A stretch of DNA of 64,000 nucleotides from a bacterium (lineage in GTDB: Bacteria > UBA8248): positions 384,001 to 448,000 of the forward strand of contig OZ242260.1 of the NCBI GenBank assembly GCA_965207065.1, read 5' to 3'. Each line of letters opens with the position of its first letter. Position 1 is the stretch's first letter. The notes beneath the pieces were generated by a model, which saw only the letters and a program-made list of their open reading frames with translations, did not search any database and was not told the DNA's origin. The position numbers and the translations under genes were made by a program. Positions 39,706 to 56,665 of the stretch are shown piece after piece.

Positions 39706-39778
39706 CCCTTGTTCTCCTCCTTTCAGTTTTTTGAGGCGAAGGCGCATCCCTCGCCGGTATTCATTCCCCGTTCTCGTA

Positions 39779-40312
39779 TCAATCCCGCCGAATCCGCTCT
39801 ATCGCCCGGAGCCGGATTTCGGCGTAATGGCAAAGCACGTTTCCAAACGTCCTCAGTTCAATCAGGTCCACCTGCGGAGGCTGAAGGCGCTCCAGCGAGC
39901 GGACGCGCGGGGAGCCTGATTCATCGAGGAGGCGGAGCGTCCTGTCGTCCCGGAAGCGGTCGCAAATCTCCTCAAGCAGTTCCTGAAAGGCCACCTCGCT
40001 GCCCACCGCGTCCTCGGCGCTCATGATGCCGAACAGCAAGAACGTGTGGGTTCGCCTGCTGATGCCGGCGGGCGTGAAGCCACCAGCCGCATTCGAGCCG
40101 ACCGATGCAGCCTCCTCCCCTGCTCTCTCGCGCGTCAGCACCCAGCCCCTGATCTGGGCGAGGCCGTCGCCCGTCTGCCACCGGAAATGGTCCAGGTATT
40201 TCCCCAGGTCGGCCGACCAGCGCTGATAGCTGTGAACCCGCCCTGCCCCCGCCACACTCGATATTTCCGCCAAAATGGCGTCGCCGATTTCTCTGTATCG
40301 TGAATTAGCCAC
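39779..40312 (-). CDS. Putative tail terminator/completion protein
   Basis: Gene order between gp10-like gene and tube; SEVAFQELLEEICDRF and GNVLCHYAEIRL patterns. Confidence 0.6.
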   Translation of the reverse strand: MANSRYREIGDAILAEISSVAGAGRVHSYQRWSADLGKYLDHFRWQTGDGLAQIRGWVLTRERAGEEAASVGSNAAGGFTPAGISRRTHTFLLFGIMSAEDAVGSEVAFQELLEEICDRFRDDRTLRLLDESGSPRVRSLERLQPPQVDLIELRTFGNVLCHYAEIRLRAIERIRRD

Positions 40313-40808
40313 TCATTCTCCTCGCAATCTCATCCACCAGTTCAAGAATGCGCCTATCGATTCGGCTCTGGTTCTCCTCGAAGGCGCCCGCGAACATGCG
40401 ACGCCCCGGTATCCCGTGCCGGGCGATTGATCGGGCAACGAGGAAGGACACCCTCTCGATAGACCCATCGGGCGGCCCCAGTTTGTGGGCCACCCAGCGA
40501 TACAGGGACGTGCCCTCCCTCCAGGGCGGCATTCTGCCGCCCGCCCGACGCCCGAATTCCACGTACCTGGCGTATGGGGTGCGTGAGGCGACCACGCCGC
40601 GCAACACGCTTGGGTTCTCTCCTTTGATTTCGGTGTAAATACTGCCCCTGAGGTTTCCGCTCGCGCCGATGGGCGTTCGCGCTATGACCTCGCGCCTGAG
40701 CATTCCGGTAATCTCGGCCATCGACTCGTGCGCGAGGAGAAGAACCCCCTCCCACGCGATAGCCGGCATCTCCGGCAATTCTTCAAGCGTTACATATCGA
40801 CGAAACAC
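40305..40808 (-). CDS. HK97 gp10-like neck/tail component
   Basis: RTPIGASGNLRGSI, YARYVEFG, PP..L..WV..K and GIPGRRMF..AF. Confidence 0.8.
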   Translation of the reverse strand: MFRRYVTLEELPEMPAIAWEGVLLLAHESMAEITGMLRREVIARTPIGASGNLRGSIYTEIKGENPSVLRGVVASRTPYARYVEFGRRAGGRMPPWREGTSLYRWVAHKLGPPDGSIERVSFLVARSIARHGIPGRRMFAGAFEENQSRIDRRILELVDEIARRMSG

Positions 40809-40826: not shown

Positions 40827-41537
40827 CTAGCGATCTTCGGACGCGCCGTGCGTGAAATACTCACCGCGCGCCAGTGAAAGAAGCACGTCCCAATCGAGAG
40901 ACGCGCCCGCCGGACCCGCCACTTCGCCTTCTTTGCGGCCGAGATGGTTCTGGTATTTGCGCTCGAGTTCCCGCCCCAGGCGCGTGTATTCCGAGGACTT
41001 GCTCTGGTAGTCCACTGAATCCGCCGCGAGGGTCGGGCTCGAGGACTGGGCGAAGCGGCGGGCCAGGAGGTGACAGCCCTCCGCGGCGGCCAGCCAGGCT
41101 ACGGCGGTCCGATCGTTTTCGGGAATGCTCGTGCGCTCGTCATCGGCCGTGTGCTTGATCGTGTAGAACAGGCGAAGCGTGTGGCCCATTTGAGGAGCGA
41201 AGTACATGAGCCTGAACCTCGCCGCCGGCGTCCCCTTGGCATAGATGATCCAGGAACTCCTTCGCAAAAAGGAGGGCTTTCTCTCCCCCTGGGGATATTC
41301 CACCTCCCGGATGAAGGAGAGGGAATCGTCCCAGTCCTCGGGGAGGGGAAAATCGAACGTCTCGCTATCGCCTGAGTAATCGGCGAACGAGACGAGCGGC
41401 ACGTCTTTGCTGTAGCGCGTGAGCGCCGCGTTCACCAGATCGGCGTAGTCCGCCTCCTCGACGCCGAACTCCCGGGGCAGCGCGCCCGCCTTCAACAAGA
41501 CCTTCACCTCTTTGATGATCGTCTGCCTGCTCGCCAT
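40827..41537 (-). CDS. Putative head-tail adaptor/connector
   Basis: Position after capsid; AALTRYSKD.P, EVEYP.G and ADSVDY.SKS..Y patterns. Confidence 0.6.
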   Translation of the reverse strand: MASRQTIIKEVKVLLKAGALPREFGVEEADYADLVNAALTRYSKDVPLVSFADYSGDSETFDFPLPEDWDDSLSFIREVEYPQGERKPSFLRRSSWIIYAKGTPAARFRLMYFAPQMGHTLRLFYTIKHTADDERTSIPENDRTAVAWLAAAEGCHLLARRFAQSSSPTLAADSVDYQSKSSEYTRLGRELERKYQNHLGRKEGEVAGPAGASLDWDVLLSLARGEYFTHGASEDR

Positions 41538-41955: not shown

Positions 41956-44034
41956 CTAGGCGGGCGCGCCTCGGTAAAAGCCGCGAAAGTCAAGGACGGC
42001 GCCGCCGTAGACGTGTCTGATCTTGTAGCGAATCTTGTCCGCGCTGAATCCGCTGCCTGCGGAGGGGTTGTCCTCGACGAACAGCTCGGGCTCGCGCATG
42101 TCGTCCATGAAGCCGATTTCGATTGTGTCCATGAGGCCCGGATCGGCGATCAAGTACCAATCGTTCGTCTCGGTGAGTTCGGGCACCCACAAGGGTTCGA
42201 TGCCCAGGCGGTTGATGAAGCTCGGCTGATTGGAGTTCCCGTCCGAGACAACCTTGACGGGCGACTGGGTGACGTCGAATGCCTCTTCGAGCAACTCCGT
42301 GGGGTGGACGAGATATTTCGGCCGAGCCTGGGCCGCTATTTCAACGCCTTCCTCTCCATAAAACGTCTGCTGACCCATCGCCTTGATGGCGGCGACGGCG
42401 CCCTCGTACGTGAGCTCGTTCGCGGAGGTGTTGTTGTGGTCAGCGTGGAACAGCGCATGGCCGTCGTATATGTTGGCATTGGACATGAGAAAATCGAATA
42501 CGAAGCCATTCAGGGTGCGCTGGGCCGCTCGGGCGAGACGCTGGGGAATCATGCGAATCGCGCCCATGTCGTCGTTCTGGATCATCTCCCATGTGAGATC
42601 CTCCACGCCGCCGCGCTTGGCTACGGCGTACGTCACTTCCTCATCCGTCGGGGAGGTAAGCGCCGGATAAGTGGCCTGTTCGGCGACTTTTTGCAGATCG
42701 CCGTAGCCGCCCACACGCACCCGGCGGTTCGTACGGAAATCCTTAACGGGCGTCACGGAAGAGGCGATCTTCTTCCACTGGTGAAAGCGCTCGTCCCTGA
42801 AATCGCGCAGCATGGCGCGGCGGATGGAATCTCCAAAAGCCTCGCCCCACGTGCTCGTCTGCAAGGAGGCGGAGAGGCGCCGCACCCCGTTCCAGTCCTC
42901 GGCGGCGCGGTGATAGTGGAACGTCTCTGCGAAGAACTGGCGCGGGGTCAGGCGATGTCCCGTGAAATCCTGAAACGCCTCGCTCATGAAGCGATAGGGG
43001 CGTTCGCCGTCTACCACCTCGTCGCGCGAACCCCAGAGCCCGTCGAGAGCCGCTTTCTTGCGGTCCGCCTCGTCGCGCATTACCTCCGCACGCGCGCCGA
43101 AACCACGGAGCGCGCCGCTCGCCGTGAGTTTTTCCAGCGTGGCCGCCTCAACCCGGATCGCCTCTTCGATCTCCTCTTCTGTAAAACTCCCGTCCCCGAA
43201 CTGGGCGAGCATCTTCTCCTGAACGGCTTCGGGCAACGCGGAGGCCGTCAGTTTCTGAGCGAGCAACCTGCGAGCCGCAGCCCCGGTTTCGGTTCCATCC
43301 TTCATGGTGTTTCCTCCTTTTTCCTTCAAGTCCAGCTCGAGACCAGCGTCTTCACAAGCCGCGAGGAACTGTTGCGGCGTCCAGGCATCGCCGAGCCTCT
43401 TGCCCGATTCGGGCGCCATGCTCTTGAGTTTCTTTCCGAGCTTTTCGAACATTTTCACCTCCGATTGAATGGAATGATTGGCGGCGAGACCCAGAATCCC
43501 GCCCCCGAGCTTGCCTTTGTGCACGACGTCGACGGAGTGGACCGCCAGAATCTTTTCGAAATGCAAAACGAGCCCATCGGCCTCCTCGCGGAACTCCGCC
43601 TGCGCGAGCACGTCGAAGGAAAAGCCAAAGGGCTCCTCAAGACCCCGGGCCAGCGCATCGTGCGCCAGCGCCTGAAACCAGGCCGCTGATCGCGAAACCG
43701 CAAACGTGCTCAGAAGCCCCTCCTCGCCCATGCGGACCTTGCGGTGCCAGCCGACCAGGTTCCTGATGTCGGGACCGCCCGAGGCGGCGTGGTTGGCAAA
43801 GGCTTGCGCACCCTCGAACAGGGGAGCGGCCTCGCGCAGAACGTCGCGGGGCAGGAACCACTCCCCGTCCCTCGAGTAGCCGGCGCGCGCGATCAACACC
43901 TCGAAATCCCAGGCTTCATCCGGCGGCTGCGCTTCTTCCGCAACCGCGCGGATGAGGTGGCCATGCAGCCTTAAGGTATGAGAATCCTTCTGCGCCTCGG
44001 CGCGCGCCCACATACGGTTCAACCATTTTTTCAA
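41956..44034 (-). CDS. Fused prohead protease-scaffold-major capsid protein (Mu gpT-like, HK97 fold)
   Basis: N-terminal FANH/GFS/SVDVV protease-like motifs; C-terminal DFR..RVRVGGYGDL, TWEMIQNDD.GA and DG.ALFHADHNN capsid motifs. Confidence 0.85.
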   Translation of the reverse strand: MKKWLNRMWARAEAQKDSHTLRLHGHLIRAVAEEAQPPDEAWDFEVLIARAGYSRDGEWFLPRDVLREAAPLFEGAQAFANHAASGGPDIRNLVGWHRKVRMGEEGLLSTFAVSRSAAWFQALAHDALARGLEEPFGFSFDVLAQAEFREEADGLVLHFEKILAVHSVDVVHKGKLGGGILGLAANHSIQSEVKMFEKLGKKLKSMAPESGKRLGDAWTPQQFLAACEDAGLELDLKEKGGNTMKDGTETGAAARRLLAQKLTASALPEAVQEKMLAQFGDGSFTEEEIEEAIRVEAATLEKLTASGALRGFGARAEVMRDEADRKKAALDGLWGSRDEVVDGERPYRFMSEAFQDFTGHRLTPRQFFAETFHYHRAAEDWNGVRRLSASLQTSTWGEAFGDSIRRAMLRDFRDERFHQWKKIASSVTPVKDFRTNRRVRVGGYGDLQKVAEQATYPALTSPTDEEVTYAVAKRGGVEDLTWEMIQNDDMGAIRMIPQRLARAAQRTLNGFVFDFLMSNANIYDGHALFHADHNNTSANELTYEGAVAAIKAMGQQTFYGEEGVEIAAQARPKYLVHPTELLEEAFDVTQSPVKVVSDGNSNQPSFINRLGIEPLWVPELTETNDWYLIADPGLMDTIEIGFMDDMREPELFVEDNPSAGSGFSADKIRYKIRHVYGGAVLDFRGFYRGAPA

Positions 44035-44131
44035 GGGGAACTCCTTTCTCGCTGGTCTTTCAGAAATTCAACTTCCGGCGATGCGCCGGAGACCGCCGCC
44101 TGGTTAAACAAGGAGCGGGTGCAACGGCGAT

Positions 44132-44184
44132 AATTTAGGGCAAGGAGACTCGAACGCGGGCCGGGCAAATGCGGGGAAATGCGC
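44132..44184 (-). promoter_or_regulatory. Shared activator box plus -10 element upstream of the capsid operon
   Basis: GCGCATTTCCCCGCATTTGC-N24-CCCTAAATT on the minus strand; near-identical copy at 56613-56665. Confidence 0.75.
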
Positions 44185-44377
44185 ATCCGGCGTCTTTTTT
44201 TGCGGAATTTTGAAATTGCTAATTGAAAATTTTAAGAAAATGCGGTAAATTACGGAAAATTCTGGAGTTGCGGATGATGCGGGTGGTCCCGGCGTCTACC
44301 AATTCTGGATACTTCGCCCGCCACTCAGGAATAGCCTGAATTCGCCGAGCAAAAAGACCGCCCCTTGAACAGGACGT

Positions 44378-45688
44378 ATGAGGTTTGATCTCATGTGGGG
44401 CGTCGCTCAACCGGTCTTGAATTTCATCCAGAAACTCTCCTGGAACCATATGCTCGACATCGGGATCATGTGGTTCCTGCTTTACCAGGTCTATATTCGC
44501 TTCAAAGGCACCCAGGCGATGCGCCTCCTCGTGCGCGTGTTCGGAGTGTGGCTCATCTATCTCGCCTCCCAGGCCGCGGGTCTGCACCTGACCTCGTTTC
44601 TCCTTTGGGCCATCTGGATCGCCGTGCTCATCCTGTTTCTCATCAATTTCCACGGCGAGATCCAAAAGATATTCTTTCAACTCAACCCGGTGCGCAGAAT
44701 CTCAATCCTGCTGCGCCGGGCGATGCGAATCCGCCTGCCGGACGTAAGCGTCGCCACCATCGCCCAATCCGCTTTTTCGCTCTCGGAGAAGCAGATGGGC
44801 GCCATCATCGTTGTGGAGCGCCGGGATTTGACCGACTCCCTGCTGAGAAGTCCGGGAGAGGAGATCGAGGCGGACATCCAGCCGGCGCTGCTGGAAACCA
44901 TTTTCTTCAAGGGAGCGCCCTACCACGACGGCGCCGCCGTCGTTCGCGAGAACAAGATCTCGCGCGTGGGATGCGTATTGCCCCTTTCAGATAACCGCGC
45001 CCTGCCGCCGGAGTTCGGCACGCGCCACAGGGCGGCGGTCGGCATCACGGAGCGGTCCGACGCCCTGGCGATCGTGATATCCGAGGAACGCGGAGAGATT
45101 ACATGCGTGGAAGGCAGCCAAACAAAGACGATAGATAATGAGGAAGAACTCGCCTCCTGGCTCACGGCGCGGCTGCGCGCGGCCCGCGAGACGGGACAGA
45201 CGATGGGACGCATATCGCTCCGCCACGTTTTCGAGAACTGGCGGCCCAAGCTCGCCGCCCTGGCCGCCGTCATATTCCTCTGGTCGCTCGGCGGGCAGGA
45301 AAACCAGAATCCGCAGAATTTCTTCCCGCAACTCGAAAGCAAGGTGGAGGAGGAATTCCGCGTCCGCGTCCATTATTACAATGTTCCGAGCGGCGTCACC
45401 CTGCCGGCCGATGCGGCGAAAGAAGTCAAAATACGCATCAGGGGCAGGCGCGATCTGCTCAATTACATCGACGCCACCCGCCTGCGCGTGAACGTGAACC
45501 TCGCCAAAATGACGCCCGGCGCGCATTCGCGCACGCTGTCGGGACGCGACATCGACCTGCCAAACGGTCTCGAATTCCTGAGCGCGGAGCCCAAGGCCCT
45601 GGATTTGAATCTCGCCAAGGCGCCGGCGCCTGAGAAAATGACGAAATCGAGCGCCTCCACCGAGACGCCGGAGTCCTCAAACTTTTAA
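44378..45688 (+). CDS. cdaA: Diadenylate cyclase (CdaA-type) fused to a YbbR/CdaR-like domain
   Basis: Three N-terminal TM helices, HDGA and GTRHRAA catalytic motifs, SEERG; then NW.PKL.A TM helix and YbbR-like beta domain. Confidence 0.88.
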   Translation: MRFDLMWGVAQPVLNFIQKLSWNHMLDIGIMWFLLYQVYIRFKGTQAMRLLVRVFGVWLIYLASQAAGLHLTSFLLWAIWIAVLILFLINFHGEIQKIFFQLNPVRRISILLRRAMRIRLPDVSVATIAQSAFSLSEKQMGAIIVVERRDLTDSLLRSPGEEIEADIQPALLETIFFKGAPYHDGAAVVRENKISRVGCVLPLSDNRALPPEFGTRHRAAVGITERSDALAIVISEERGEITCVEGSQTKTIDNEEELASWLTARLRAARETGQTMGRISLRHVFENWRPKLAALAAVIFLWSLGGQENQNPQNFFPQLESKVEEEFRVRVHYYNVPSGVTLPADAAKEVKIRIRGRRDLLNYIDATRLRVNVNLAKMTPGAHSRTLSGRDIDLPNGLEFLSAEPKALDLNLAKAPAPEKMTKSSASTETPESSNF

Positions 45689-46082
45689 GGCCCTTCTTTT
45701 CAGATACTTGAATTTCTACCTTCAGAAAAATTTGCTTTTTTCGCTTAAAATACCGATATTGAATGAACCGGGCTACAGTCGCTGAGACGTCCAGGAGCTT
45801 TGACGAGCACTAAGGGCGAACCATTTTCGATGGTACTTGGCTGGCCCAAGTGAGGCGGCAAGGAGCCGACACAGAAAACGGCTCCGGCCCGGGTTCAAGG
45901 AACCCTTCAACAGAAGGAGGATGCGATGATATCAACGATAAATCGCTTCAGCCGTGCGGAAACGCCACCCTCCCCGGCCCCATCGCGTCAGCCGGGCGGG
46001 GAGGAAGACAAAGGCTGATGCACAAATAAAGGCGACAAAACGCCTTCGTGAGGTGAGACGAGTTCTCACCCTGAAAAAGAGC

Positions 46083-46126
46083 AAAAAAAGAGAGCGGGGT
46101 GCAACGCCCCGCTCTTCTTTTTTTTT
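46083..46126. terminator. Bidirectional intrinsic terminator
   Basis: A7-GAGAGCGGGG..CCCCGCTCTTC-T9. Confidence 0.85.
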
Positions 46127-46127
46127 C

Positions 46128-46322
46128 CTAGCTCTTGGCCTCGAGTTTCCGCATCTCGATTTCGAGTTGCTGGAGCCTGTTCTTGATCATGTTGAAGTCG
46201 TACTCGAACCCCTCGGCGAGCAGCGTGAGACCATGATAGAGCTGGTGCTTTTCCGGCTCTTCCTCCGCGTTCACCGAATCGAGCATCTCGGCGAAAACCT
46301 CTCTGGCATGATGAAAGCTCAA
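46128..46322 (-). CDS. Small hypothetical coiled-coil protein
   Basis: 64 aa helical ORF ending directly at the terminator. Confidence 0.6.
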   Translation of the reverse strand: MSFHHAREVFAEMLDSVNAEEEPEKHQLYHGLTLLAEGFEYDFNMIKNRLQQLEIEMRKLEAKS

Positions 46323-46457
46323 AACGCCTTCCCCCTTTTTGAATGAGAACGCACATTAAGAAGCCATAAATCTTTTGCAGGAAGAATCCCGCTCCTATCT
46401 TTGCTAGAATCCATCGCACCGACAAATAAACCACATCGCAAACGAGGAGTCATCTTC

Positions 46458-46955
46458 ATGCCGGAAAGACCAAACACGCCGCAAGTCATCCTCCGCCACA
46501 TTCAGGGCACCCAGCTTCAGATGCTCACCACCACGGGCAAACACTCCTACGTGCTCGATGAGCCCGAAACCAGAGGCGGCACGGACCTGGCCGCCACGCC
46601 GTTCGAGTTCTTCATCGCAGGGCACGCGGGCTGAGGCCTCTACACGCTGCTGGGAGCGGCGAAGGCCAAGGGCATCCATATCGACGACGTGGAGGTCCAC
46701 GCGGAGTTCAAACGGAATATTTCACCCAAATTTCATTCGGATTACCACGCGGACCCCGAGCGGAGAAAACTCGCCATCGGCGTCATCCGTACGAGCTATT
46801 ACATCCACGGCGACGTAACCGAAGAGCAAAAGGCGGAACTTCTCGATGAACTTGAGAACTGCCCCATCCACAACACGCTGATGACGCCGCCCAGGCTCGA
46901 GGAGCGGATCGTCGTTCTGGAGAAGGATGAAACCGCGCCCATAGAGATTTCGTAA
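46458..46955 (+). CDS. OsmC-like selenoprotein (in-frame TGA at 46632-46634 read as Sec)
   Basis: DEP..RGGTD..ATPFE....HAG-TGA-G continues in frame to ENCPIHNTL; TGA sits at the OsmC catalytic Cys position; SECIS-like hairpin follows. Confidence 0.85.
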
Positions 46956-46984
46956 GGGCGGGGAAAGAGCCGCTCGCTAAATTA

Positions 46985-47224
46985 GGGGTTCTTGAAAAAG
47001 TTCTCATCGGTCGGTCGGAATCGACCACTGCCGTCATTCCGGCGAAAGCCGGAATCCATTTTCGGATGCGGGTGAATGAACGGCGGCGTTTCATTCCCCA
47101 CCAATGCGCGGGAACCCTGACGAAAGGCAAAAGGCGTAAAAATAGATTCCGGCTTTCGCCGGAATGACGGTGAATACTCTCGATGGGGGCAACAACCCCA
47201 TTGAGGGACTTTTTCAACAACCCC
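46985..47224. mobile_element. MITE-like element with IS1182-like ends carrying a CGTCATTCC repeat pair
   Basis: Ends GGGGTTCTTGAAAAAGTTC / GGACTTTTTCAACAACCCC; internal inverted pair at 47031-47170. Confidence 0.75.
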
Positions 47225-47279
47225 AATAATGGGAGCCTTGAACTTCGGCAGGAAAGGAAGACACCCTTCAAAATGAGTC

Positions 47280-47753
47280 TTAGTAGGAAATCTTGTCTTC
47301 CATCTGAGCCCATAGATTGAAGGATTCGAGGGCTTCATCTTCCAGGAGCCGCGTTGCTTCGAGCTTTCTGTCAGCGACCGGCAGGGCGATTTCCTTGTAG
47401 AGAAATTCATCGGAAAACCCGATGGCGTCAGCCTCGACGATGGAGTTTCCAAAATACATACGGTCGAGTCTCGACCAGTAAATTGCGCTCAAACACATCG
47501 GGCAGGGTTCACAGCTCGTATATATCTCACAGCCTGACAAATCGAAATTCTTCAGTTTCGCGCAGGCCGCCCGTATGGCGATCATCTCGGCATGGGCTGT
47601 GGGATCGCAAGATGACGTCACCCGGTTCGTACCCTCGCCGATGATTTCGCCATCCTTCACGACGACGGACCCGAAAGGCCCGCCGAGTCCTTCCCTCACG
47701 TTTTGAGAAGCGAGCGATATCGCCTTTCTCATAAAAGCTTCCCGTGTCTCCAT
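47280..47753 (-). CDS. Nucleoside/guanine deaminase (CDA superfamily, GuaD-like)
   Basis: GGPFG, DPTAHAE and SCEPCPMC. Confidence 0.9.
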   Translation of the reverse strand: METREAFMRKAISLASQNVREGLGGPFGSVVVKDGEIIGEGTNRVTSSCDPTAHAEMIAIRAACAKLKNFDLSGCEIYTSCEPCPMCLSAIYWSRLDRMYFGNSIVEADAIGFSDEFLYKEIALPVADRKLEATRLLEDEALESFNLWAQMEDKISY

Positions 47754-47959
47754 TTCCGCATCTCCCGTTGAGTTCCACCTTTCCGCCGATGTTTTCTCTT
47801 CTCTGCGTCTATATTTTCCCTGATTCCCCTCATCTTAACTTGTTTTTGGAATGGTTTGCATTTATTTTGCAGGCACTCCATTTATCGTCTCCAAAGAGCG
47901 GAGCCTGAAACGAGAGAAACCCTGCTGCGCGAAATTCGCAATCCAATAAGGATTTGATT

Positions 47960-48865
47960 ATGAAAATCGGATTCATCGGACTGGGAAACATGGGGGCAGG
48001 CATAGCGGCCAACCTCCAGAAAGCGGGCTATGAACTCGTCGTTCACGACATCGTCCGCGATGCCGCGACGGATCACATCGAACGAGGCGCACTCTGGGCG
48101 GACTCCCCTGAAGAGGTGGCCCACGCGAGTGAGATCATCTTCACCTCGCTGCCGGGTCCCAAGGAAGTCGAGAGCGTCGCCACGGGGCCGAACGGGATTC
48201 TCGCAGGCATCAGCGCGGGGAAAGTCTACGTCGACTTGAGCACGGTATATCCTTCCATCGTCCGCCGCATCCACGAGAAATTCTCAGAAGCAGGCGCGCA
48301 CATGCTCGAAGCACCGGTGAGCGGCTCCACAATCGGCGCGAACACGGGGCGACTCGCCATCATGGCGGGAGGTGAGAAGGAGGTATATGAGCGCTGCAAG
48401 CCCCTTCTCGACGCCATTGGAGACAGCCCCTCCTACACGGGTCCCATCGGCACCGGCGCCGTGTGCAAGCTCGCCCACAATTGCCTGAGCTACGGCATCC
48501 AAGCCATCGCGGCGGAATGCTTTACCCTGGGCGTCAAGGCGGGGGCGGACCCCGAGGTATTGGCCGAGGTGATCCGAAACGGCGCGGTGGGCCGGGCCGT
48601 GCACTTCAACTTCATCTTCTACGAGACATTCTTCAAGGGGAAATTCGACGAGCCACACTTTCCCATCAAGGGCGCCGTGAAGGACGTAGGGCTCGCGCTC
48701 CAACTCGCCAGAGAGCACGACGTACCCATGACGATAGGCAACATCGCCTACGGGGAGCTCATCTCGGGCTTGAACCGCGGCTGGGGGGATGATGACGCGA
48801 GGCGCGCCATGACGCTCCAGGAAGAACGCGCGGGCGGCGTGCAGGTGAGAATTCCAGAAAAGTAG
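47960..48865 (+). CDS. Beta-hydroxyacid dehydrogenase family NAD(P)-dependent oxidoreductase
   Basis: IGFIGLGNMG, EAPVSG and KLAHN. Confidence 0.9.
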   Translation: MKIGFIGLGNMGAGIAANLQKAGYELVVHDIVRDAATDHIERGALWADSPEEVAHASEIIFTSLPGPKEVESVATGPNGILAGISAGKVYVDLSTVYPSIVRRIHEKFSEAGAHMLEAPVSGSTIGANTGRLAIMAGGEKEVYERCKPLLDAIGDSPSYTGPIGTGAVCKLAHNCLSYGIQAIAAECFTLGVKAGADPEVLAEVIRNGAVGRAVHFNFIFYETFFKGKFDEPHFPIKGAVKDVGLALQLAREHDVPMTIGNIAYGELISGLNRGWGDDDARRAMTLQEERAGGVQVRIPEK

Positions 48866-48874
48866 ATTTTACGC

Positions 48875-49879
48875 ATGAAACACGGAATCGCCATGCTGCC
48901 TCCCGCGCCCGAGACCTACGCGCACTGGTGCCGGCTCTCAGAAGAAGCGGGCTTCGACGTCGTCTGGGTGCCGGACTCACAATCGCTTTACCGGGAGCTT
49001 TACGTCTCGTGCGCCATCTGCGCGGCGAACACCTCGCGTGTCCTGCTGGGTCCCAATGTCACCAACCCGCTCACGCGGCATCCCGCGACAGCGGCGAGCG
49101 CTATCGCCACCGTGGATGAGTATTCGGGTGGTCGCGCGCTGTTCGGAATCGCCACGGGCGACAGCGCCGTCCTGAACCTGGGCCTGCGCCCCGGCCGCGT
49201 GGACGACATGAGAGACTACGTGCTCGCCATGCGCGGGATGCTAGAGGAGGGCACGGCCCACTACCGGGGAAAGCCCTGCACGCTGAACTGGCACAAAAAG
49301 CGGGTTCCGCTCTACATCGCCGCCGAGGGGCCGCGCACCATCCGCCTTGCGGGCGAGATCGCCGACGGCGTCACCATCGGCACAGGCCTCACGCCCGAAG
49401 TGGTGGCCGATTCCCTCACCTGGCTCGAGGAGGGCGCGAGGAAATCGGGCCGCAAGGTGAACGATCTCGACATCTGGTGGCTCGCCAAGGTGAACGTGCG
49501 CGATGACGGCGAACAGGCACGCGAAGAAATCCGCATGGCCCTGGCCGCGAGCGCGCACCACGCCTTTCGCTTCACGCTCGAGGGCAAGCGGATTCCCAAG
49601 GAACTCCTCTCCGCCGTCGAAACCCTCAAAAAAGGGTATGCGTTCCACGAACACGAGATGGTGGACAAGCAGACGAACGCCGAACTCGTGGACAGGCTCG
49701 GCCTCCGCGAGTACCTGCTCGATCGCTTCGCCATCGCGGGCTCGCCTGCCGAATGCAGACAGAAGATAGAGGACATGAATTCGTTCGGCGTGGAGAACTT
49801 GAGGATCGCCGCCCACGTGCACGACAAGCCCGCCTTTATCCGGGCGTGGGGCCGCGAGATAATCAGCCGGAGCAAGTAA
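48875..49879 (+). CDS. LLM-class oxidoreductase (Mer-like)
   Basis: PDSQSLYRE, VTNPLTRHP, GIATGDSA and AAEGP..LAGEIADG. Confidence 0.88.
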   Translation: MKHGIAMLPPAPETYAHWCRLSEEAGFDVVWVPDSQSLYRELYVSCAICAANTSRVLLGPNVTNPLTRHPATAASAIATVDEYSGGRALFGIATGDSAVLNLGLRPGRVDDMRDYVLAMRGMLEEGTAHYRGKPCTLNWHKKRVPLYIAAEGPRTIRLAGEIADGVTIGTGLTPEVVADSLTWLEEGARKSGRKVNDLDIWWLAKVNVRDDGEQAREEIRMALAASAHHAFRFTLEGKRIPKELLSAVETLKKGYAFHEHEMVDKQTNAELVDRLGLREYLLDRFAIAGSPAECRQKIEDMNSFGVENLRIAAHVHDKPAFIRAWGREIISRSK

Positions 49880-49896
49880 CCAAAGAGGCCATCATC

Positions 49897-50898
49897 ATGA
49901 GACACGGCATTTCCTTCAGACCGCCCGACACGGATTCATTCGCCCGCTGGTGCAGGTGCGCGGAAGAGCTCGGTTTCGACGCGGTGTTCATCCCCGATAC
50001 ACAATCCCTCTACCGGGAGGTCTACGTATCGAGCGCGATATGTGCGATGGAGACGAGTGAGATCATTTTCGGCCCTTGCGTCACGAACCCCGTCACGCGG
50101 CACCCGGCGGTTGCCGCGAGCGCCATCGGCACCATCAGCGAGCTATCGGGCGGACGCGCCTTCTGGGGGATCGCCACGGGCGACAGCGCAGTCCTGAATC
50201 TGGGTCTCAGGCCCGCGAAGCTCGCCGAGATGCGCGAGTACATCCTCGCCGTGCGGGGCATGCTCGAAGAAGGAAGCGCCCAGTACAAGGGGAACAACGC
50301 CCGGCTGAGCTGGCATAAATCCCACGTGCCCATCCACATCGCTGCAGAAGGCCCCAAGACCTTAAGCCTGGCGGGCGAGGTGGCCGACGGCGTCATCATC
50401 GGAACGGGCCTCATTCCCGAGGTCATCGCGGACACGCTCTCCTTCATCGACGAGGGCGCCAGGAAGTCCGGCCGAAGGGTGGAAGACCTTGACCTCTGGT
50501 GGCTGGTGGACGCCCATGTGGACGCGGACGGGGAGCGCGCCCGCGCGGACATCCGCACCGCCCTCGCCGCGAGCGCGCATCATTCCTTCTCCTTCACGTT
50601 GGAGAACAAGCGGATTCCCAAGGAACTCGAATCCGGCATCCGCGCGCTGAGGGACGGTTACCAGACTTCGGAGCACGGCTTCATGGATAAATCCAACAAC
50701 GCAGGCTTGGTCGATGAGTACGGACTGAGGGACTACCTGGCGGAGCGCTTCGCCATCGTCGGCACGCCTGAAGAATGCCGGGAGAGACTCCAGCACCTCG
50801 AAAACCTGGGCGTCAGGGGGCTTCGCATCAACAACAACCTGCCCGACAGGACGGTCTTCATGAACGCCTGGGCGAAGGATGTTCGGGGGATCGCTTAA
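49897..50898 (+). CDS. LLM-class oxidoreductase (Mer-like), paralog of the upstream gene
   Basis: Same motifs as 48875-49879 and visibly high similarity. Confidence 0.88.
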   Translation: MRHGISFRPPDTDSFARWCRCAEELGFDAVFIPDTQSLYREVYVSSAICAMETSEIIFGPCVTNPVTRHPAVAASAIGTISELSGGRAFWGIATGDSAVLNLGLRPAKLAEMREYILAVRGMLEEGSAQYKGNNARLSWHKSHVPIHIAAEGPKTLSLAGEVADGVIIGTGLIPEVIADTLSFIDEGARKSGRRVEDLDLWWLVDAHVDADGERARADIRTALAASAHHSFSFTLENKRIPKELESGIRALRDGYQTSEHGFMDKSNNAGLVDEYGLRDYLAERFAIVGTPEECRERLQHLENLGVRGLRINNNLPDRTVFMNAWAKDVRGIA

Positions 50899-51044
50899 AC
50901 TCCGCGCGAGTAAAACGCCAAATTCCCACCGAGTAGACGCAAACCGATAATTTCCCTCGGGACGCCGCTTCGGTTAGAATGGCGGAAATGATCGAGACAG
51001 GCGAAATTCGACCTCCCCGTACAATCTCTCACAGGAGGGTGGGC

Positions 51045-51599
51045 ATGAGCGAAATGACGAAGGAAAAGGAAAAAATTCTCGTCTACGAGCCCGTGGCGGA
51101 GGCTCCGGGCGCGAGCGCCGTCATGGCCGCGCGGCCCGAGAGCTTAAACGGCAAGAGCGTGGGCCTCATCAACAACACCAAGGATTTCACGGACGATATT
51201 TTCGACGTCATGGGCGCCGCGCTCGAAGAGCAATTCCCGGGCGTGCGCGTGGTTCGCTACCGGAAGGAATCCGTGAGCGGCGCATCGCCCGCCCTGATGG
51301 AGCAGGTGGAAGGAGAGTGCGACGCCGTCGTTTCCGCACTCGGCGACTGAGGCTCGTGCACGTCGTGGAGTATCCACGACAGCGTCGCTCTCGAGAAAAG
51401 AGGGCTGGCCACGGTCACCATCGTCACCGACGCTTTTGCGAGCTATGCGAAGCAACTCACCAAGCTGCACAAGATGAACGAGCTTCCCCTCGTTACACTG
51501 CCCCACCCCATCGCTGGCAGAAAGCGCGAGGAGGTGGATGAGATGTCGGCAGAAGCGAGTGCGCATCTGGCAGGCGCCCTGACGCAAACGAGCGGCTAG
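51045..51599 (+). CDS. UGSC-motif selenoprotein (in-frame TGA at 51348-51350)
   Basis: ALGD-TGA-GSCTSWSIHD..LEKRG..TV.IVTDAF continues in frame to TAG at 51597-51599; SECIS-like hairpin follows; AGGAGG RBS. Confidence 0.85.
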
Positions 51600-51606
51600 T
51601 CTATCC

Positions 51607-52707
51607 ATGAGCGAACCAAGTCCCGCCCGCCAGATAGCGCTCGACCAAGACGCCGGCGCGATATACGAGCACTTCTACGAGGAGGGCTGGACAGACGGGC
51701 TGCCCATCATCCCGCCAACCGAGGAGCGCGTCGCGGAAACCCTGCGTTACACGGACTACGCGCCGGGCGATATTATCGCCCATGTTCCGCCACGGAACGC
51801 GCCGGCCACGGCGGAAGTCATCGCCATCAACGCCGTGATGGCGGGCTGCAAGCCTGAATACCTGCCCGTGCTCATCGCCGCCGTCCAGGCCATGACGGAG
51901 CCCGCTTACAACCTATACGGCCGCCAGACGACCACCCATCCGGGCGCGCACCTGATGATCGTCCACGGGCCAGTAAGGAATGAAATCGAAGTCAACTGCC
52001 GCCAGAACGTCTTCGGCCAGGGCTGGCGAGCCAACGCGACGATGGGCCGCGCGGTGCGGCTCCTGATGATGAACGCGGGCGGCGGCATCCCCGGCGTGAC
52101 GGACATGGCCACTCACGGGCATCCGGGAAAATACTCCTACACCATCGGCGAGGATGAGGAGGGAAGCCCCTGGCCGGCATTTCACGTCGACAGGGGTTTT
52201 TCGCCGGATACTTCCGCCGTCACCATGCTCTGCGCCGAGTCGCCCCACAACGTAAACGACCTGGTGAGCAAGACGCCGCATAAATACCTGGGCACGGCGG
52301 CTTCGGCCATGAGCCACCTGGGCGCGAACGGCGTCTACCGGAGCGGGCTGCCGAGTGAGCAGATGCTCGTCCTGACAGCCGAGGCCGCCACGTGGCTATC
52401 GAACCAGGGGTGGACGAAGGCCGACGTATCCCAGTTCATCTACGAGAACGCGCGTCAGCCGATTCGTCTCATGCGTGACCGGGGGGGGTTCGACATGACG
52501 CCGCTCGCTCCTTTCGTGAATCTCGAAGAAGACGAGGACATGGCCCCCATCGTCCCGAGGCCCGAAGACATCCTCATCGTCGTAGCCGGCGGCCACGGCC
52601 GCCACATGCAGGCCGTCCTCACGGCGAGCTACAACCTGAGCGTTACAAAGGCCATCACCAGAAAAGACGGAACGCCGATTGAGTCGGTAAGGGAGTTTGT
52701 GTCGTGA
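51607..52707 (+). CDS. Conserved protein, partner of the UGSC protein
   Basis: GWTDGLPIIPPT, AINAVMAGC.PEY.PV and RANAT.GRA.RL motifs, typically seen beside UGSC genes. Confidence 0.7.
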   Translation: MSEPSPARQIALDQDAGAIYEHFYEEGWTDGLPIIPPTEERVAETLRYTDYAPGDIIAHVPPRNAPATAEVIAINAVMAGCKPEYLPVLIAAVQAMTEPAYNLYGRQTTTHPGAHLMIVHGPVRNEIEVNCRQNVFGQGWRANATMGRAVRLLMMNAGGGIPGVTDMATHGHPGKYSYTIGEDEEGSPWPAFHVDRGFSPDTSAVTMLCAESPHNVNDLVSKTPHKYLGTAASAMSHLGANGVYRSGLPSEQMLVLTAEAATWLSNQGWTKADVSQFIYENARQPIRLMRDRGGFDMTPLAPFVNLEEDEDMAPIVPRPEDILIVVAGGHGRHMQAVLTASYNLSVTKAITRKDGTPIESVREFVS

Positions 52708-52773
52708 GGGGGATTGCATTTCCGCTCTGTCTCGCGGAACGATACGGGGGTCCGGGCGGGTTCTCCTCGCAGA

Positions 52774-53061
52774 TTAGGCTACCCTGAACTTATCCACCTT
52801 GATTTCGTCGGCCCGGGCGCGCGCCTTCCAAAGATCGTAAGCCATCTGCAGGCCGAGCCAGGTCTCCGGTGTCGAGCCGAACGCTTTGGACAGGCGAATC
52901 GCCATTTCCACGGAGATGCCGGTGTGTTCGTTGACCAGTTCCGACAAGGTCTGACGCGTGACGCCAATCCCCTCGGCCGCTTTCGTCACGGACAATCCGA
53001 GCGGCTCAAGACATTGCCGTTTCACGATCCCACCCGGATGTGGAGGATTTTGCATCGCCAT
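52774..53061 (-). CDS. higA: HigA antitoxin (HTH)
   Basis: NPPHPG, SVTKAA..GVTRQTLS, EMAIRLSKAFG and WLGLQMAYDL. Confidence 0.92.
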   Translation of the reverse strand: MAMQNPPHPGGIVKRQCLEPLGLSVTKAAEGIGVTRQTLSELVNEHTGISVEMAIRLSKAFGSTPETWLGLQMAYDLWKARARADEIKVDKFRVA

Positions 53062-53074
53062 CACAGTACCCTCG

Positions 53075-53353
53075 TCAATGGTAGTCGAGGTAATCTAGAT
53101 CGACTACGTCACCCTCTTCGAATCGAAAGGTTACCCGCCAATTCCCTGAAACCGTCACTGCATAATGACCCTTCAGTTCCCCCTTCAGTCGGTGGAGCCG
53201 AAAACCAGGGAGAGCAACATCTTGCGGCTGCCGACTCCTGTCCAGAACGGCCAGAATATCCCTTAGTTTCTGAACATGCTCCGGCGCGACTCGCCGCGCC
53301 GTTCGACCATCGTAGAGTGCTTTCAGGCCCCGATGTTTGAAAGACGCGATCAT
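53075..53353 (-). CDS. higB: HigB toxin (RelE/ParE family)
   Basis: MIASFKHRGLK, PGFRLH.LKG, VSGNWRVTF and DYLDYH. Confidence 0.92.
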   Translation of the reverse strand: MIASFKHRGLKALYDGRTARRVAPEHVQKLRDILAVLDRSRQPQDVALPGFRLHRLKGELKGHYAVTVSGNWRVTFRFEEGDVVDLDYLDYH

Positions 53354-53513
53354 CGATGAAGAATAATGCGTCAGGCGTCGCCTGTCAACTGACGAACCGG
53401 CAACGATAACGTCAGGAGGGCGAGGCGGGTGACCCCTCGTTTGAATTTTCGTATGTGAAGACAGAGATAGAATTCAGGCCTAGAAAACGCCCTTGGGCCG
53501 CGTTCTTCCCCCC

Positions 53514-54863
53514 CTACCCCTCCATATCCATACCGAACTGGCCCGCCAAGTGGGTGATGAGCTTGCCGGCGGCATCGTCGCTCATCCAGCCGCGTGAGGT
53601 GGCCGTCTCGAGCGCGGTGCTGACGCGCAAAAGGGCTTCGGACATCTTCTCGGTGTCGCGGACGGAGATATCCGGCAGAACGGGCGATACGCCGGAGCGG
53701 AGCGCTTCTTCTGGCAGCGCGCCCGCGCGGTGGGCTTCTTCCAACTGCTTGTCGGCCATGGCTTGCAGGATATGGCGCACGGTGCGCTGGCGGCGCGTCA
53801 TCTTCTTCAAGGTGGGCTGATCCATCGACTCGGCCGAGGCGCGGTTCACGTCCTCCCCCTGGGCGAACCAGTGGGACGGGATCCCCACGCCGCCTAATAG
53901 AAGCCCCCGCATCATCTTGGCGATGCCCTGCGCGCCGGATTCGCCTCCCTTGAGATCGGGCGAGACGGCCTGCCACTCCTCTTTCTCGTTGTGGACGCGG
54001 ACGCTCGAGGGCTTTGGCGCGACGCCGTTCTCAGCGAGCCACTCGGCTATCTTCTCGGGGCCGGCGCCTTTCAGGGTGACGTCGTAGATGAAGCTGTTCT
54101 GCAGGCGCGCGCGCTCCACGGCGTCGAAGATGAAGCGCTCATACGTGTCTATCCAGTCGATGGCGGCGAGCAGGTCCGAAGCGCCGCGCGCGGCGTCGCT
54201 CGCCTTGTTGATCTGGAACAGGAACGCCTCCCCATCCGTAAAGCGCGCACGCTCCCTCCGGGCGGATGCGCTCAGATAGCCGCGCGGATCGCCGCCCAGC
54301 ACCGTCCGGATTCGCTTGCCCTTTCGTGCAGTTCCACTCGGCCCCCCGGCGCGCAGGACGACCCCGATGGGCAGGGCGCAGTTGTCCGGGTCCGTCACCA
54401 CCTCTTCAATCAGGCGGGGGCTGACGTAGCCCAGCCGAACCCGTCCCTCGAAGCGCGAGACGGCGACGGGCAGCAAGAGTTCCCCGAAGATGCCGAGTTC
54501 AGATACGAGCCGCTCGAAACGGATGTCCATCTGGTTCACGGGATCGCCCCAGAACGCCTTCACCGCGCTCAGGGCGCGCTCATCCTCCCCGTGCCAGCTT
54601 ATTCCCTCGCCCACGACGTGATCCGTCACGATTTCGATCAAGCGCTGGCCCATGAGGTTCGTGAGCCAAAGCTCATACGCCAACGCCTGCATACGCGCGT
54701 GCGTGTAAGGCGAAACTCCGCCGCGCCCCTCTCCCAGGGGACGCCAGATTCTCTCGTCCGGATCAATCTCCGCACTCATTCGCCCTGTACGCTGCGAGCC
54801 CTCTCCTTTTCTCCCTGCTCCCGATTTCCGCCCGGCTGCCTTCACCTTCTTCACACTCTCCAT
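53514..54863 (-). CDS. Phage-like portal protein
   Basis: Follows terminase; VVGEG, GE.LL, GASDL, GIPSHWF and VNRASAESM..PT.K...RRQ patterns. Confidence 0.75.
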   Translation of the reverse strand: MESVKKVKAAGRKSGAGRKGEGSQRTGRMSAEIDPDERIWRPLGEGRGGVSPYTHARMQALAYELWLTNLMGQRLIEIVTDHVVGEGISWHGEDERALSAVKAFWGDPVNQMDIRFERLVSELGIFGELLLPVAVSRFEGRVRLGYVSPRLIEEVVTDPDNCALPIGVVLRAGGPSGTARKGKRIRTVLGGDPRGYLSASARRERARFTDGEAFLFQINKASDAARGASDLLAAIDWIDTYERFIFDAVERARLQNSFIYDVTLKGAGPEKIAEWLAENGVAPKPSSVRVHNEKEEWQAVSPDLKGGESGAQGIAKMMRGLLLGGVGIPSHWFAQGEDVNRASAESMDQPTLKKMTRRQRTVRHILQAMADKQLEEAHRAGALPEEALRSGVSPVLPDISVRDTEKMSEALLRVSTALETATSRGWMSDDAAGKLITHLAGQFGMDMEG

Positions 54864-54865
54864 GC

Positions 54866-55507
54866 TTATCTCCTCTTTAGAATCCGCTTGTGAAAAGCCT
54901 GCGGGACCACCGTGCCCCCGGCGAGGGGGGCCAGCACTCCCTCGCTCTGCGCCAGGGATTCGGCCAGCCGCGCGTAGGCGCAGGCGAAGCCGAAATGGTT
55001 CTCGTTTCGCTCATACGACAGCACCGTCTCCCCGGAGGAGCGGATGCGCGGCTTTTTCCTCAAATTCATGAGGTGACGCTCCACCTTGCCCAAAAGCGCC
55101 TCCTCCCCTGTATCTCCGGGCTGCGGCAGCAGGACCCGTCCGGCTCCCTCGTGAAACTCCTCCACGAGGTGATCCAGCAGGTCCTCGCGGTTCATCCGCA
55201 CGTGGCGACGCTCCACCCCCAGGAACGAGACTTCCCTGGTCTGCATCTCGCCCTCCGTGTGCCGCCAGATGAAGCCGCCGTCTGGATTCAGGTCGTACAC
55301 CGCGCGCGCCTCCCGGGTGTGGGGACCGCCGTCTATGACGAACGCCTCCACGCCCAGGTCCGAGAACACGGCGCGGCAGCGCTCGATGAGCCGCTCGACG
55401 GGAGGCGCTTCGAAATACATCCACCGGGCGGGCCGGCCCTCCTCGCGCACAGCAAGCGCGCAGACGTCGCCCGTGTCGATCCCGCAGAAGCGATGGCGCG
55501 CGCTCAT
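54866..55507 (-). CDS. Terminase large subunit, nuclease part (separate ORF)
   Basis: RFCGIDTGD, FVIDGGP and C-terminal NHFGFACAY RNase H-like pattern; own GGAGG RBS and ATGA overlap. Confidence 0.65.
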   Translation of the reverse strand: MSARHRFCGIDTGDVCALAVREEGRPARWMYFEAPPVERLIERCRAVFSDLGVEAFVIDGGPHTREARAVYDLNPDGGFIWRHTEGEMQTREVSFLGVERRHVRMNREDLLDHLVEEFHEGAGRVLLPQPGDTGEEALLGKVERHLMNLRKKPRIRSSGETVLSYERNENHFGFACAYARLAESLAQSEGVLAPLAGGTVVPQAFHKRILKRR

Positions 55508-56562
55508 GCGGGCGCCTCCGCCAGATGGTAGGGCGCAGCGTCGCGCAGCTTGCGGAGAAGTTCGCGCGAGATCGGCTGGGTATCGCCCGCATCGGGGGCG
55601 GCGAGGGCCGAGCAGCGAAAGCGCGCCTTCTCGCTCGGGAGGCGGGCGGCGGCCCATTTCGCCGCGACCCGGTCGAGACGCACCGCGCCGATAGCGAGTT
55701 GGGAGAGGCGATAGCTCCTGTGCCGGGGTCTCTCGCGCGCGGCCTCCCACCGCCCCGCTCCCCTGTCGAGCGCGCCGCCGCAGGCCGGACAGGCGAGCGC
55801 ATCGCCGCTAAAGACTTTCGGCCAGTGCTCCTCCAGGACGCTATCGGCATGGCACGCCTGACACCTCACATGCCAGCGTCTCCGGTCACCCGCCTCAAAC
55901 ATGGCGTGAATGCCCGCGCCCGGGGTTCTGCCGACGGCCAGGTTGAGCGTCAGGGCGAGTGACGAGGCGTCGATGCGGTCGTTAGACCACTTGAGGTTGT
56001 CCGCCGGCAGGTCGTCCACCTCGTCACGGATCAGCACATCGAGCGGGATGGATATGGCGTTGCCGATGTCCCGGAGGCCAAGGATGTAGAGAAATCGTGA
56101 GCCCCCGCGCCCGGGGAATTCCTTCAAACCCCTGGGCGACGCGCCCTTGTATTTCCCATCACGCATGAGCGAGGCGAGTCCCCTGCGCCTGAGCGTGGAG
56201 CGCACGCGCGTCTGGTCGAAGCGGTCGGCGAAATCCTGATCCGGCAGAAAATAGCCCACGTTCAGGCGGTGGATGGTGACGCAGTAGAGCGCAAAACCGA
56301 TGGCGAGGGTGGTCATGCCCACCTGCGCGCCCTTCAGGACGCTGATGGTCTGATCGGGCGTGCGGTTATTCAGAACCTCGTCGAGCGCGGAGACGACCTC
56401 CAGCATCGCCTCTCTTCCCTCGAAGGTGAACGCGCCCTTGTCGGTCGACATCTCGCTCATCAGAAACCGAGCCAACCCGTGCATCTCGCCCGAATAGCGC
56501 GATGAGCCGCCCGACGCGAGAGCCATGGCGGGCGCCCCGATGATTTTCCGGGATTTGCGCAA
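55504..56562 (-). CDS. Terminase large subunit, GpA-like ATPase part
   Basis: Walker A-like VLKGAQVGMTT, Walker B LIRDEVD, TP..GI..F..GD.R.W.V.C..C and CPACG zinc motif. Confidence 0.8.
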   Translation of the reverse strand: MRKSRKIIGAPAMALASGGSSRYSGEMHGLARFLMSEMSTDKGAFTFEGREAMLEVVSALDEVLNNRTPDQTISVLKGAQVGMTTLAIGFALYCVTIHRLNVGYFLPDQDFADRFDQTRVRSTLRRRGLASLMRDGKYKGASPRGLKEFPGRGGSRFLYILGLRDIGNAISIPLDVLIRDEVDDLPADNLKWSNDRIDASSLALTLNLAVGRTPGAGIHAMFEAGDRRRWHVRCQACHADSVLEEHWPKVFSGDALACPACGGALDRGAGRWEAARERPRHRSYRLSQLAIGAVRLDRVAAKWAAARLPSEKARFRCSALAAPDAGDTQPISRELLRKLRDAAPYHLAEAPA

Positions 56563-56612
56563 AGCCGGAACTCCTCCCTATCCAGGATGCCGTGCGCATC
56601 CTCTCGGGGAGG

Positions 56613-56665
56613 AATATAGGGGTTGGTGCCGGCAAACCATGACGCGCAATTGCGGGGAAATGCGC
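56613..56665 (-). promoter_or_regulatory. Shared activator box plus -10 element upstream of the terminase operon
   Basis: GCGCATTTCCCCGCAATTGC-N24-CCCTATATT on the minus strand; matches 44132-44184. Confidence 0.75.

Follow-up and report, generated by a model that had tools for sequence, protein, structure and literature searches.

The 64,000-nucleotide stretch analyzed here (the window; contig OZ242260.1 of assembly GCA_965207065.1, positions 384,001 to 448,000 of the forward strand) belongs to the genome of an uncultured marine bacterium, designated G000 and available as one 4.48-Mb contig. Two phage-derived gene modules lie in it, one headed by a capsid gene and the other by the gene for the large terminase (TerL), and upstream of each a look-alike, promoter-like site was found on the minus strand, in which GCGCATTTCCCCGCAWTTGC is followed after exactly 24 nt by CCCTAWATT (site 1, 44184-44132; site 2, 56665-56613). 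Site 1, which lies 90 nt ahead of the protease-capsid fusion gene, reads GCGCATTTCCCCGCATTTGC (44184-44165), 24 nt and CCCTAAATT (44140-44132); site 2 reads GCGCATTTCCCCGCAATTGC (56665-56646), 24 nt and CCCTATATT (56621-56613). The parts of both sites, with the leaders and first genes that follow them, are listed below in window coordinates (aa, amino acids).

44165..44184, minus strand: direct repeat of the capsid promoter (about -59 to -40), made of the 10-bp units GCGCATTTCC and CCGCATTTGC; orthologous site at 21 of 27 capsid loci
44141..44164, minus strand: spacer of the capsid promoter, 24 nt, no -35 hexamer; length invariant, sequence unconserved (orthologue identity 0.60 versus 0.89 for the 20-mer)
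44132..44140, minus strand: -10 region CCCTAAATT of the capsid promoter, hexamer TAAATT at 44137-44132; predicted start near 44125
44035..44124, minus strand: putative 5' leader of capsid transcripts, conserved in relatives; a G+C-rich hairpin (terminator-like stem TCCGGCGCATCGCCGGA) spans 44090-44074
41956..44034, minus strand: first gene of module 1, encoding a head-maturation protease fused to the major capsid protein, 692 aa (Pfam Phage_capsid_4, 7.4e-47; PHROG 29592, 133 and 4523)
56646..56665, minus strand: direct repeat of the terminase-portal promoter, made of GCGCATTTCC and CCGCAATTGC; all 21 TerL loci of the genus have it upstream
56622..56645, minus strand: spacer of the TerL promoter, 24 nt, no -35 hexamer; orthologue identity 0.64 versus 0.94 for the 20-mer
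56613..56621, minus strand: -10 region CCCTATATT of the TerL promoter, hexamer TATATT at 56618-56613; predicted start near 56606
56563..56612, minus strand: TerL leader with a conserved 9-bp hairpin; CCUCC at its 5' end could base-pair with GGAGG of the ribosome-binding site
55504..56562, minus strand: ATPase part of the large terminase, 352 aa (Pfam GpA_ATPase, 2.6e-15; phrog_675 profile positions 17-345 of 576)

The two 20-mers are identical at 19 of 20 positions and the 9-mer boxes at eight of nine, whereas identity is low in the spacer (10/24), upstream (13/30) and downstream (6/22), so that what the sites share is confined to the boxes and to the distance between them. Direct reading of both sites thus bore out the earlier note on this DNA, which had described near-identical 20-mers, exactly 24 nt and a -10-like box. 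With up to three mismatches allowed, the 20-mer occurs at two places in the window versus 0.03 expected, and none of 100 shuffles reached two. Each site has the appearance of a promoter that lacks a -35 box: no -35/-10 pair of the sigma-70 type was found on the minus strand at site 1 or site 2. The TAnnnT hexamer follows 27 nt after the end of the 20-mer, and if it is taken as the -10 box, the 20-mer occupies about -59 to -40. There it forms a direct repeat with a 10-bp period, centered near -49.5, with the consensus CGCAWTTSCC-CGCAWTTGC for its two 10-bp units; eight of its 20 positions are A/T, including two ATTT tracts at about -55 to -52 and -45 to -42, and the other 12 are conserved G or C.

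Five modules and genome-wide arrays

When motif sites were followed beyond the window, three more phage-derived blocks were found, with lysis, small-terminase and tail genes (genome coordinates of G000).

Site at 460306: lysis module, with a 49-aa membrane protein, a phage lysozyme (Phage_lysozyme) and a holin (Pfam GTA_holin_3TM)
Site at 458292: small-terminase module, with a conserved 110-aa protein and a Mu gp27-like small terminase
Site at 2486992: tail module, with a 358-aa protein, five open reading frames (ORFs) and then a 559-aa protein with weak tape-measure matches

All five phage-derived modules of G000 bear the common upstream site. Compared pairwise, their promoters are identical at 15-19 of the 20 positions of the 20-mer and at only 2-11 of the 24 spacer positions; the spacer is always exactly 24 nt long and is followed by nnnTAnnnT. 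Phage structural, packaging and lysis genes are scattered over the five modules, with host metabolic genes in between. The modules examined, some small ORFs of which are unnamed, showed neither a replication nor an integrase gene.

Across G000, the 20-mer has six exact copies, 30 with up to one mismatch, 56 with up to two and 97 with up to three. The 10-bp direct repeat that had been noticed inside it was also recovered with a unit, CGCAWTT, that was defined independently of the full site: this unit recurs on the same strand at exactly 10 bp in 57 cases and in at most four at any other distance up to 45 bp, and the reversed unit, used as control, gave zero pairs at 10 bp. A TAnnnT hexamer starts at site position 48 in 25 of the 57 arrays, versus at most three at any other offset, and A49 and T53 are each present in 69 of the 97 sites, often after (T)GG. 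Both window sites match this genome-wide geometry exactly. A weight-matrix scan gave 183 hits in G000 versus four in the reversed genome; the hits collapse to 147 arrays, many of them with more than two units, and 82 carry a -10-like box in register.

Most of these promoter-like arrays (60 of 82) are followed, at no more than 330 nt, by a 29-bp AT-rich core, AATTTATCGAAAAACCCCGTGAATTTATC, which has 65 copies in G000 and none in the reversed control. Arrays reach the core from both sides, 31 versus 29 by orientation, and so form convergent promoter pairs (for example at G000 1863727-1864049, L029 328-650, where the core is flanked by convergent motif promoters). Read in one orientation, many copies of this repeat are predicted small ORFs running through the core (..IDKFTGFFDK..); some contain stop codons or are missing a start codon. 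A further 17 of the 82 arrays are neither linked to the core nor part of the phage modules, the single rRNA operon being among them. No Rfam match was obtained for 12 motif-bearing loci at E values up to 0.1, and the 300 nt that follow each motif site hold none of the 47 tRNA/tmRNA genes of G000. Two other promoter readings were rejected by eye from the position table of the 97 sites, namely a sigma-54 promoter, as no GG-N10-GC register is present, and a -35 box with a long spacer, as TTGC would sit 25 nt from the hexamer.

Conservation and distribution among relatives

Of 23 genomes in the genus, 21 have TerL, 21 the 358-aa tail-module protein and 19 the holin. Across the order, 35 of 44 genomes encode the capsid, and nine of 11 genera are represented among them. 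At all 21 TerL loci, the motif is followed by exactly 24 nt and TATATT, also where the upstream neighbor gene differs; TATATTCCT is invariant in these 21 loci, and the three bases before it vary, with CCC in most. The full site is present at 21 of 27 capsid loci, and a further three retain the proximal unit alone at the same distance; the remaining three are siteless, one with a replaced upstream region, one on a truncated contig and one with a poor alignment. The tail loci carry the site in 21 of 21 cases by reading and in 15 of 21 by strict regular expression. The lysis genes have it upstream at 18 of 19 loci and the small terminase at 14 of 19, the remainder being mostly cut by contig ends. 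All five module promoters are thus retained in 14-21 related genomes with invariant spacing and diverged spacers, in line with the earlier proposal that only boxes and spacing are conserved, by selection rather than duplication. Mean pairwise identity between orthologues is 0.89-0.97 for the 20-mer and 0.72-0.95 for the -10 box, and falls to 0.60-0.71 in the spacer and to 0.41-0.63 in the flank upstream, which argues for selection on the boxes and on their distance. Taken together with a synonymous divergence (dS) of the capsid gene of 0.39-0.88, these identities also indicate that the G/C positions of the repeat, and not the A/T tracts alone, are under selection. The non-synonymous to synonymous ratio (dN/dS) of the capsid gene is 0.12-0.19, measured like dS versus six orthologues. 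Module order and spacing are alike in the relatives G007 and G033.

The motif itself varies widely in abundance. The exact 19-mer has 16-61 copies in 15 of 18 sampled congeners, where the reversed control never occurred, and was absent from the 12 genomes of other genera searched. For the full pattern, up to three mismatches were allowed, and the controls reported were zero in all congeners compared. By this measure, G007 has 47 matches, G033 has five (capsid, TerL, tail and lysis, plus one without a -10 box), G016 has two (capsid and TerL) and G009 has zero. The expectation that the motif would keep to the modules in relatives thus nearly holds in G033 (four of five) and G016 (two of two) and fails in G007 and in a further congener, G010. 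Motif sites can be orthologous between species, such as the G000 site at 496 kb and the G010 locus L131. Outside the genus, G037 carries a variant, CGAAATTG..CGAAATTGCGG with TAnnTT, in 10 copies (control zero; example copy C17:8721-8772), one of which lies about 120 nt upstream of the capsid gene. Across 44 genomes, the capsid is present in 24 of 26 with hits to the strict pattern and in 11 of 18 without hits, a profile from which no statistical conclusion is drawn because of the relatedness of the genomes and because diverged sites escape the strict pattern. In G007, two near-identical motif promoters lie 2.5 kb apart at 574900-580600 (L096, L097); a 683-aa ORF that matches nothing in Pfam or PHROG follows the first of them.

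These data bear on the possibility that sites 1 and 2 are alike through insertion of the same mobile repeat, such as a miniature element with an outward promoter, and not through selected common control. As many as 60 of the 82 promoter-like copies belong to one family with the 29-bp core (65 versus 0 in the reversed genome), G007 has repeat families of its own that bear the motif, and an AT-rich stretch with degenerate repeat units lies upstream of the capsid site. However, the module promoters stay with their modules when the upstream neighbor changes, and they are present in other genera as well as in G033, where the pattern search gave no match to the AT-rich core, and in G016, where the core is at background level. 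Moreover, the core is absent downstream of both window sites, and the -10 spacing is invariant while the flanks have diverged. We regard an origin of the two sites by such insertion as highly improbable.

Predicted activation and its alternatives

From this architecture, conservation and distribution, which were observed directly, we infer the transcription starts, the activation and the nature of the binder. Both window sites represent one promoter type, consisting of a tandem repeat and a TAnnnT -10 box 27 bp downstream, with no -35 box. The hexamer would serve as the -10 of the housekeeping holoenzyme, a sequence-specific activator would occupy the repeat with tandem protomers on one helix face, and the repeat, located where the alpha C-terminal domains of RNA polymerase usually contact UP elements, would recruit the polymerase and replace the -35 box. 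In the lineage, this promoter type stands at the head of each of the five blocks of a domesticated particle system, phage-derived and dispersed, that resembles a gene transfer agent (GTA), and the blocks would therefore most likely be switched on together. The 29-bp AT-rich element with its convergent promoter copies has spread the signal to about 60 further places in G000, and the signal is found at a few host genes too.

On balance, we lean towards the repeat being the site of a predicted sequence-specific activator, bound as tandem protomers, which would coordinate a GTA-like regulon and whose site would later have been spread by repeats. An activator is favored because the G/C positions are as conserved as the A/T positions, arrays of more than two units are common, and copy number ranges from zero to dozens among congeners. 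Common control of the modules is plausible in view of the fixed geometry, the three further modules and the orthologous conservation despite diverged spacers; the promoters are shared, and co-control of the five modules is probable.

Several observations weigh against this activator reading. The phage modules account for five of the 82 promoter-like arrays in G000, the other 77 lying elsewhere, and motif arrays are found ahead of integrase, luciferase-like oxygenase, pyruvate dehydrogenase E1, peptidase, transaldolase and cyclase genes. Since many copies sit in repeat families, their similarity is partly due to recent copying and not to selection. In G007, the motif is also located ahead of thiolase, radical-SAM and MFS genes, via repeat families of its own. 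G010 has five full-pattern matches, and three of the five double-unit sites examined there have the -10 box in register, while the capsid, TerL, the 358-aa first gene product of the tail module and the holin were searched for in this genome and not found; as G010 keeps motif promoters where module genes were not found, a binder, if any, would be untied to the modules. A sponge metatranscriptome run (X20) gave three short contigs over 19.5 kb, one of 151 nt inside the capsid gene (42777-42927), where DNA carry-over is possible, and two on host genes; this is one small RNA run represented by assembled contigs only, its uncovered stretches are uninformative, and the start positions stay predictions. 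Finally, as the rRNA promoter has an A/T-rich element in exactly the motif register, direct reading of the ATTT tracts by the alpha subunit is a real alternative.

The single rRNA promoter of G000 (1913914-1913966, plus strand) consists of GCGCATTTTCAGGCATTTCC, CGG, TTGACA, 18 nt and TACTCT, with the hexamer at position 48-53. Its -35 box TTGACA is kept in 21 of 21 genomes of the genus (GTTGACA in 20, CTTGACA in G007), and in the -10 box TA and the final T are kept while the middle varies (TACTCT, TATTCT, TAATCT, TAGTCT and others). The -59 to -40 stretch is A/T-rich but variable across the same 21 genomes and, judged by its sequence, behaves as a classical UP element. Among the 183 motif hits, TTGACA is in place at the rRNA promoter only, and two others come within one mismatch.

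The 20-mer could, accordingly, be a lineage-specific strong UP element, read by two alpha C-terminal domains with no extra protein, in which case the promoters would be constitutive and regulation would act elsewhere, for instance through structured leaders. Its position at -59 to -40 and its ATTT tracts near -55 to -52 and -45 to -42 resemble the E. coli proximal UP subsite, for which one study places critical adenines at -41 to -43 (PMC4390567). As in the E. coli rRNA UP element, two A/T tracts lie one helical turn apart and could compensate for a missing -35 box. In the rRNA promoter, GCGCATTTTCAGGCATTTCC occupies the motif register 3 nt upstream of a perfect TTGACA, and the TerL leader, whose 5' end can base-pair with the ribosome-binding site, provides a further level at which control could act. 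Measured as a sigma-70 promoter with an UP element, the sites fit in their TAnnnT at a fixed distance and in the -40 to -60 placement, and lack the -35 box at 16-18 bp. On the other hand, A/T occupies only eight of the 20 positions, and the G/C positions are conserved like the A/T tracts while the spacers have diverged, which minor-groove reading of A-tracts leaves unexplained. Arrays of three or more units are common, while RNA polymerase has only two alpha C-terminal domains. Full-pattern matches number 0 (G009), 2 (G016), 5 (G033) and 47 (G007), spanning 0 to 47 in the five congeners compared; a general preference of alpha should vary less, if alpha is alike across the genus. We therefore consider the UP-element explanation unlikely, though far from negligible.

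A different account keeps an activator but dedicates it to the phage-derived element, like GafA for the Rhodobacter GTA, with the other copies being non-functional or parasitic passengers on repeats. All five modules bear the site, phage modules provide four of the five full matches in G033 and both of those in G016, where the AT-rich repeat has no match or is at background level, respectively, and other genera, too, have the site ahead of the capsid gene. A candidate would be the 110-aa protein encoded first in the small-terminase module (genome 457765-458094, minus strand), which is 82-96% identical across 16 genomes, a conservation exceeding that of TerL and capsid. It has no Pfam or PHROG family, a PDB sequence search gave only chance-level matches (E about 1), and the named Atlas clusters closest to it are families of the winged-helix type, at weak scores of 0.85-0.87, which is a lead only. 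The AlphaFold model of this protein is unusable (pLDDT 54) and too poor to support the assignment. Against exclusivity, 77 of the 82 promoter-like copies in G000 lie outside the modules, several non-module sites are orthologous between species (the 496-kb site and L131), and G010 has motif promoters while neither the modules nor the 110-aa protein, which was not found in G009 either, were found there. An activator serving the phage-derived element exclusively is, in our judgment, quite improbable. The earlier note had proposed a dedicated activator co-inducing both window modules; common control remains plausible, as five modules share the site, but exclusivity fails with five of 82. The scan of this genome and its relatives, with 147 arrays, 82 of them with a -10 box, and unrelated host genes in both G000 and G007, contradicts exclusivity: owing to repeat-borne and host-gene arrays, the motif is common at unrelated sites in G000, which the note had named as an outcome that would refute its proposal, and a site restricted to the system it controls is not what this genome contains.

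Returning to the preferred reading, in which an activator binds the repeat, several known systems offer partial parallels. In Mu middle promoters, the activator site is centered at -43.5 with an additional alpha contact, and Mor binds an inverted repeat (PMC4390567). The sites studied here share with Mor- and C-dependent Mu promoters the -10 hexamer, the poor or absent -35 box and an activator-type site just upstream, but they differ in having a direct repeat centered near -49.5 instead of a dyad at -43.5. Lambda CII recognizes the direct repeat TTGC-N6-TTGC straddling the -35 region. The 20-mer, which holds TTSC-N6-TTGC, is similar in form, whereas the CII repeat lies about 14 bp closer to the -10 box. 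Boxes of the OmpR/PhoB family, including CtrA, consist of two short direct repeats with a period of 10-11 bp, bound by tandem protomers beside or replacing the -35 region; their repeat layout is similar to that of the motif and their sequences are different. CtrA controls gene transfer agents along with many other genes.

The term GTA-like refers here to gene content and conservation only, and the system is known from its genes alone. The genes for structure, packaging and lysis are dispersed, they have been conserved vertically and by purifying selection, all loci have a common site, and one module includes a Pfam GTA_holin_3TM protein, as would be expected of a GTA. In Rhodobacter capsulatus, putative CtrA half-sites and GafA sites are reported at the head-spike, tail-fibre and lysis loci of the GTA (PMC9638019). 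Both systems have domesticated-phage genes at separate loci that share regulator sites, here five modules with one upstream site; the present one differs in its phylum (labelled Nitrospinota), in the sequence of the site and in that most site copies lie outside phage-derived genes. The phage system looks like an undescribed, family-wide and domesticated one, and a literature search for gene transfer agents together with Nitrospinota led only to work on desert salt-pan metagenomes.

A wider picture, in which uncultured, apparently sponge-associated Nitrospinota would possess a family-wide GTA-like system with five modules wired by one activator, whose operator would have been copied by repeats in the crown species as convergent pairs at about 65 AT-rich sites, strikes us as rather unlikely. 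If it were true, switching on the particle genes would also fire the AT-rich sites, which could be small RNAs, decoys or packaging-initiation sites for the small terminase. If the activator reading holds, it would provide a sequence-defined handle on the coordination of a domesticated phage particle in a phylum with no such system described. A 20-bp operator with fixed spacing could be used in the search for the binder, in predicting the regulon of each species and in tracing the spread of an operator by a repeat. As a lesson for annotation, two matching sites in one window hid a genome-wide signal, of which the window was not representative.

Other features of the window

The remaining genes of the two modules, those of module 1 named by Pfam/PHROG annotation, are the following.

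40827-41537, minus strand: 236-aa protein of unknown function, module 1
40305-40808, minus strand: Neck1/HK97 gp10-like protein, module 1
39779-40312, minus strand: 177-aa protein of unknown function, module 1
38566-39747, minus strand: tail-tube-like protein, module 1
37914-38222, minus strand: 102-aa protein of unknown function, module 1
54866..55750, minus strand: nuclease part of the large terminase in a second frame, 294 aa (phrog_675 profile positions 351-549 of 576, E 2.6e-10)
53514..54863, minus strand: portal protein, 449 aa (phrog_10963, 3e-46)

The terminase ATPase and nuclease ORFs (54866-56562, minus strand) overlap by about 250 nt in different frames, and the open frame of TerL is about 365 aa long in most relatives too and 560 aa in G033; the split could be a conserved frameshift or reflect two subunits. 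In the TerL leader, two of the 13 predicted pairs are changed on both sides among 20 sequences.

Between the window modules lie host genes for a diadenylate cyclase, a deaminase, dehydrogenases and luciferase-like oxygenases. A sigma-70-like promoter (TTGAAA, 17 nt, TAAATT) at 44223-44251 on the plus strand, in the AT-rich stretch upstream of site 1, faces the gene for a diadenylate cyclase/YbbR fusion (44378-45688). At the gathering threshold, Rfam yielded one tRNA in the window and nothing else. At 46463-47113, the summed contig depth in three DNA runs is about 20-fold above that of the flanks, with many joints and loose ends; this segment is a repeat or mobile sequence common to other DNA in the samples.

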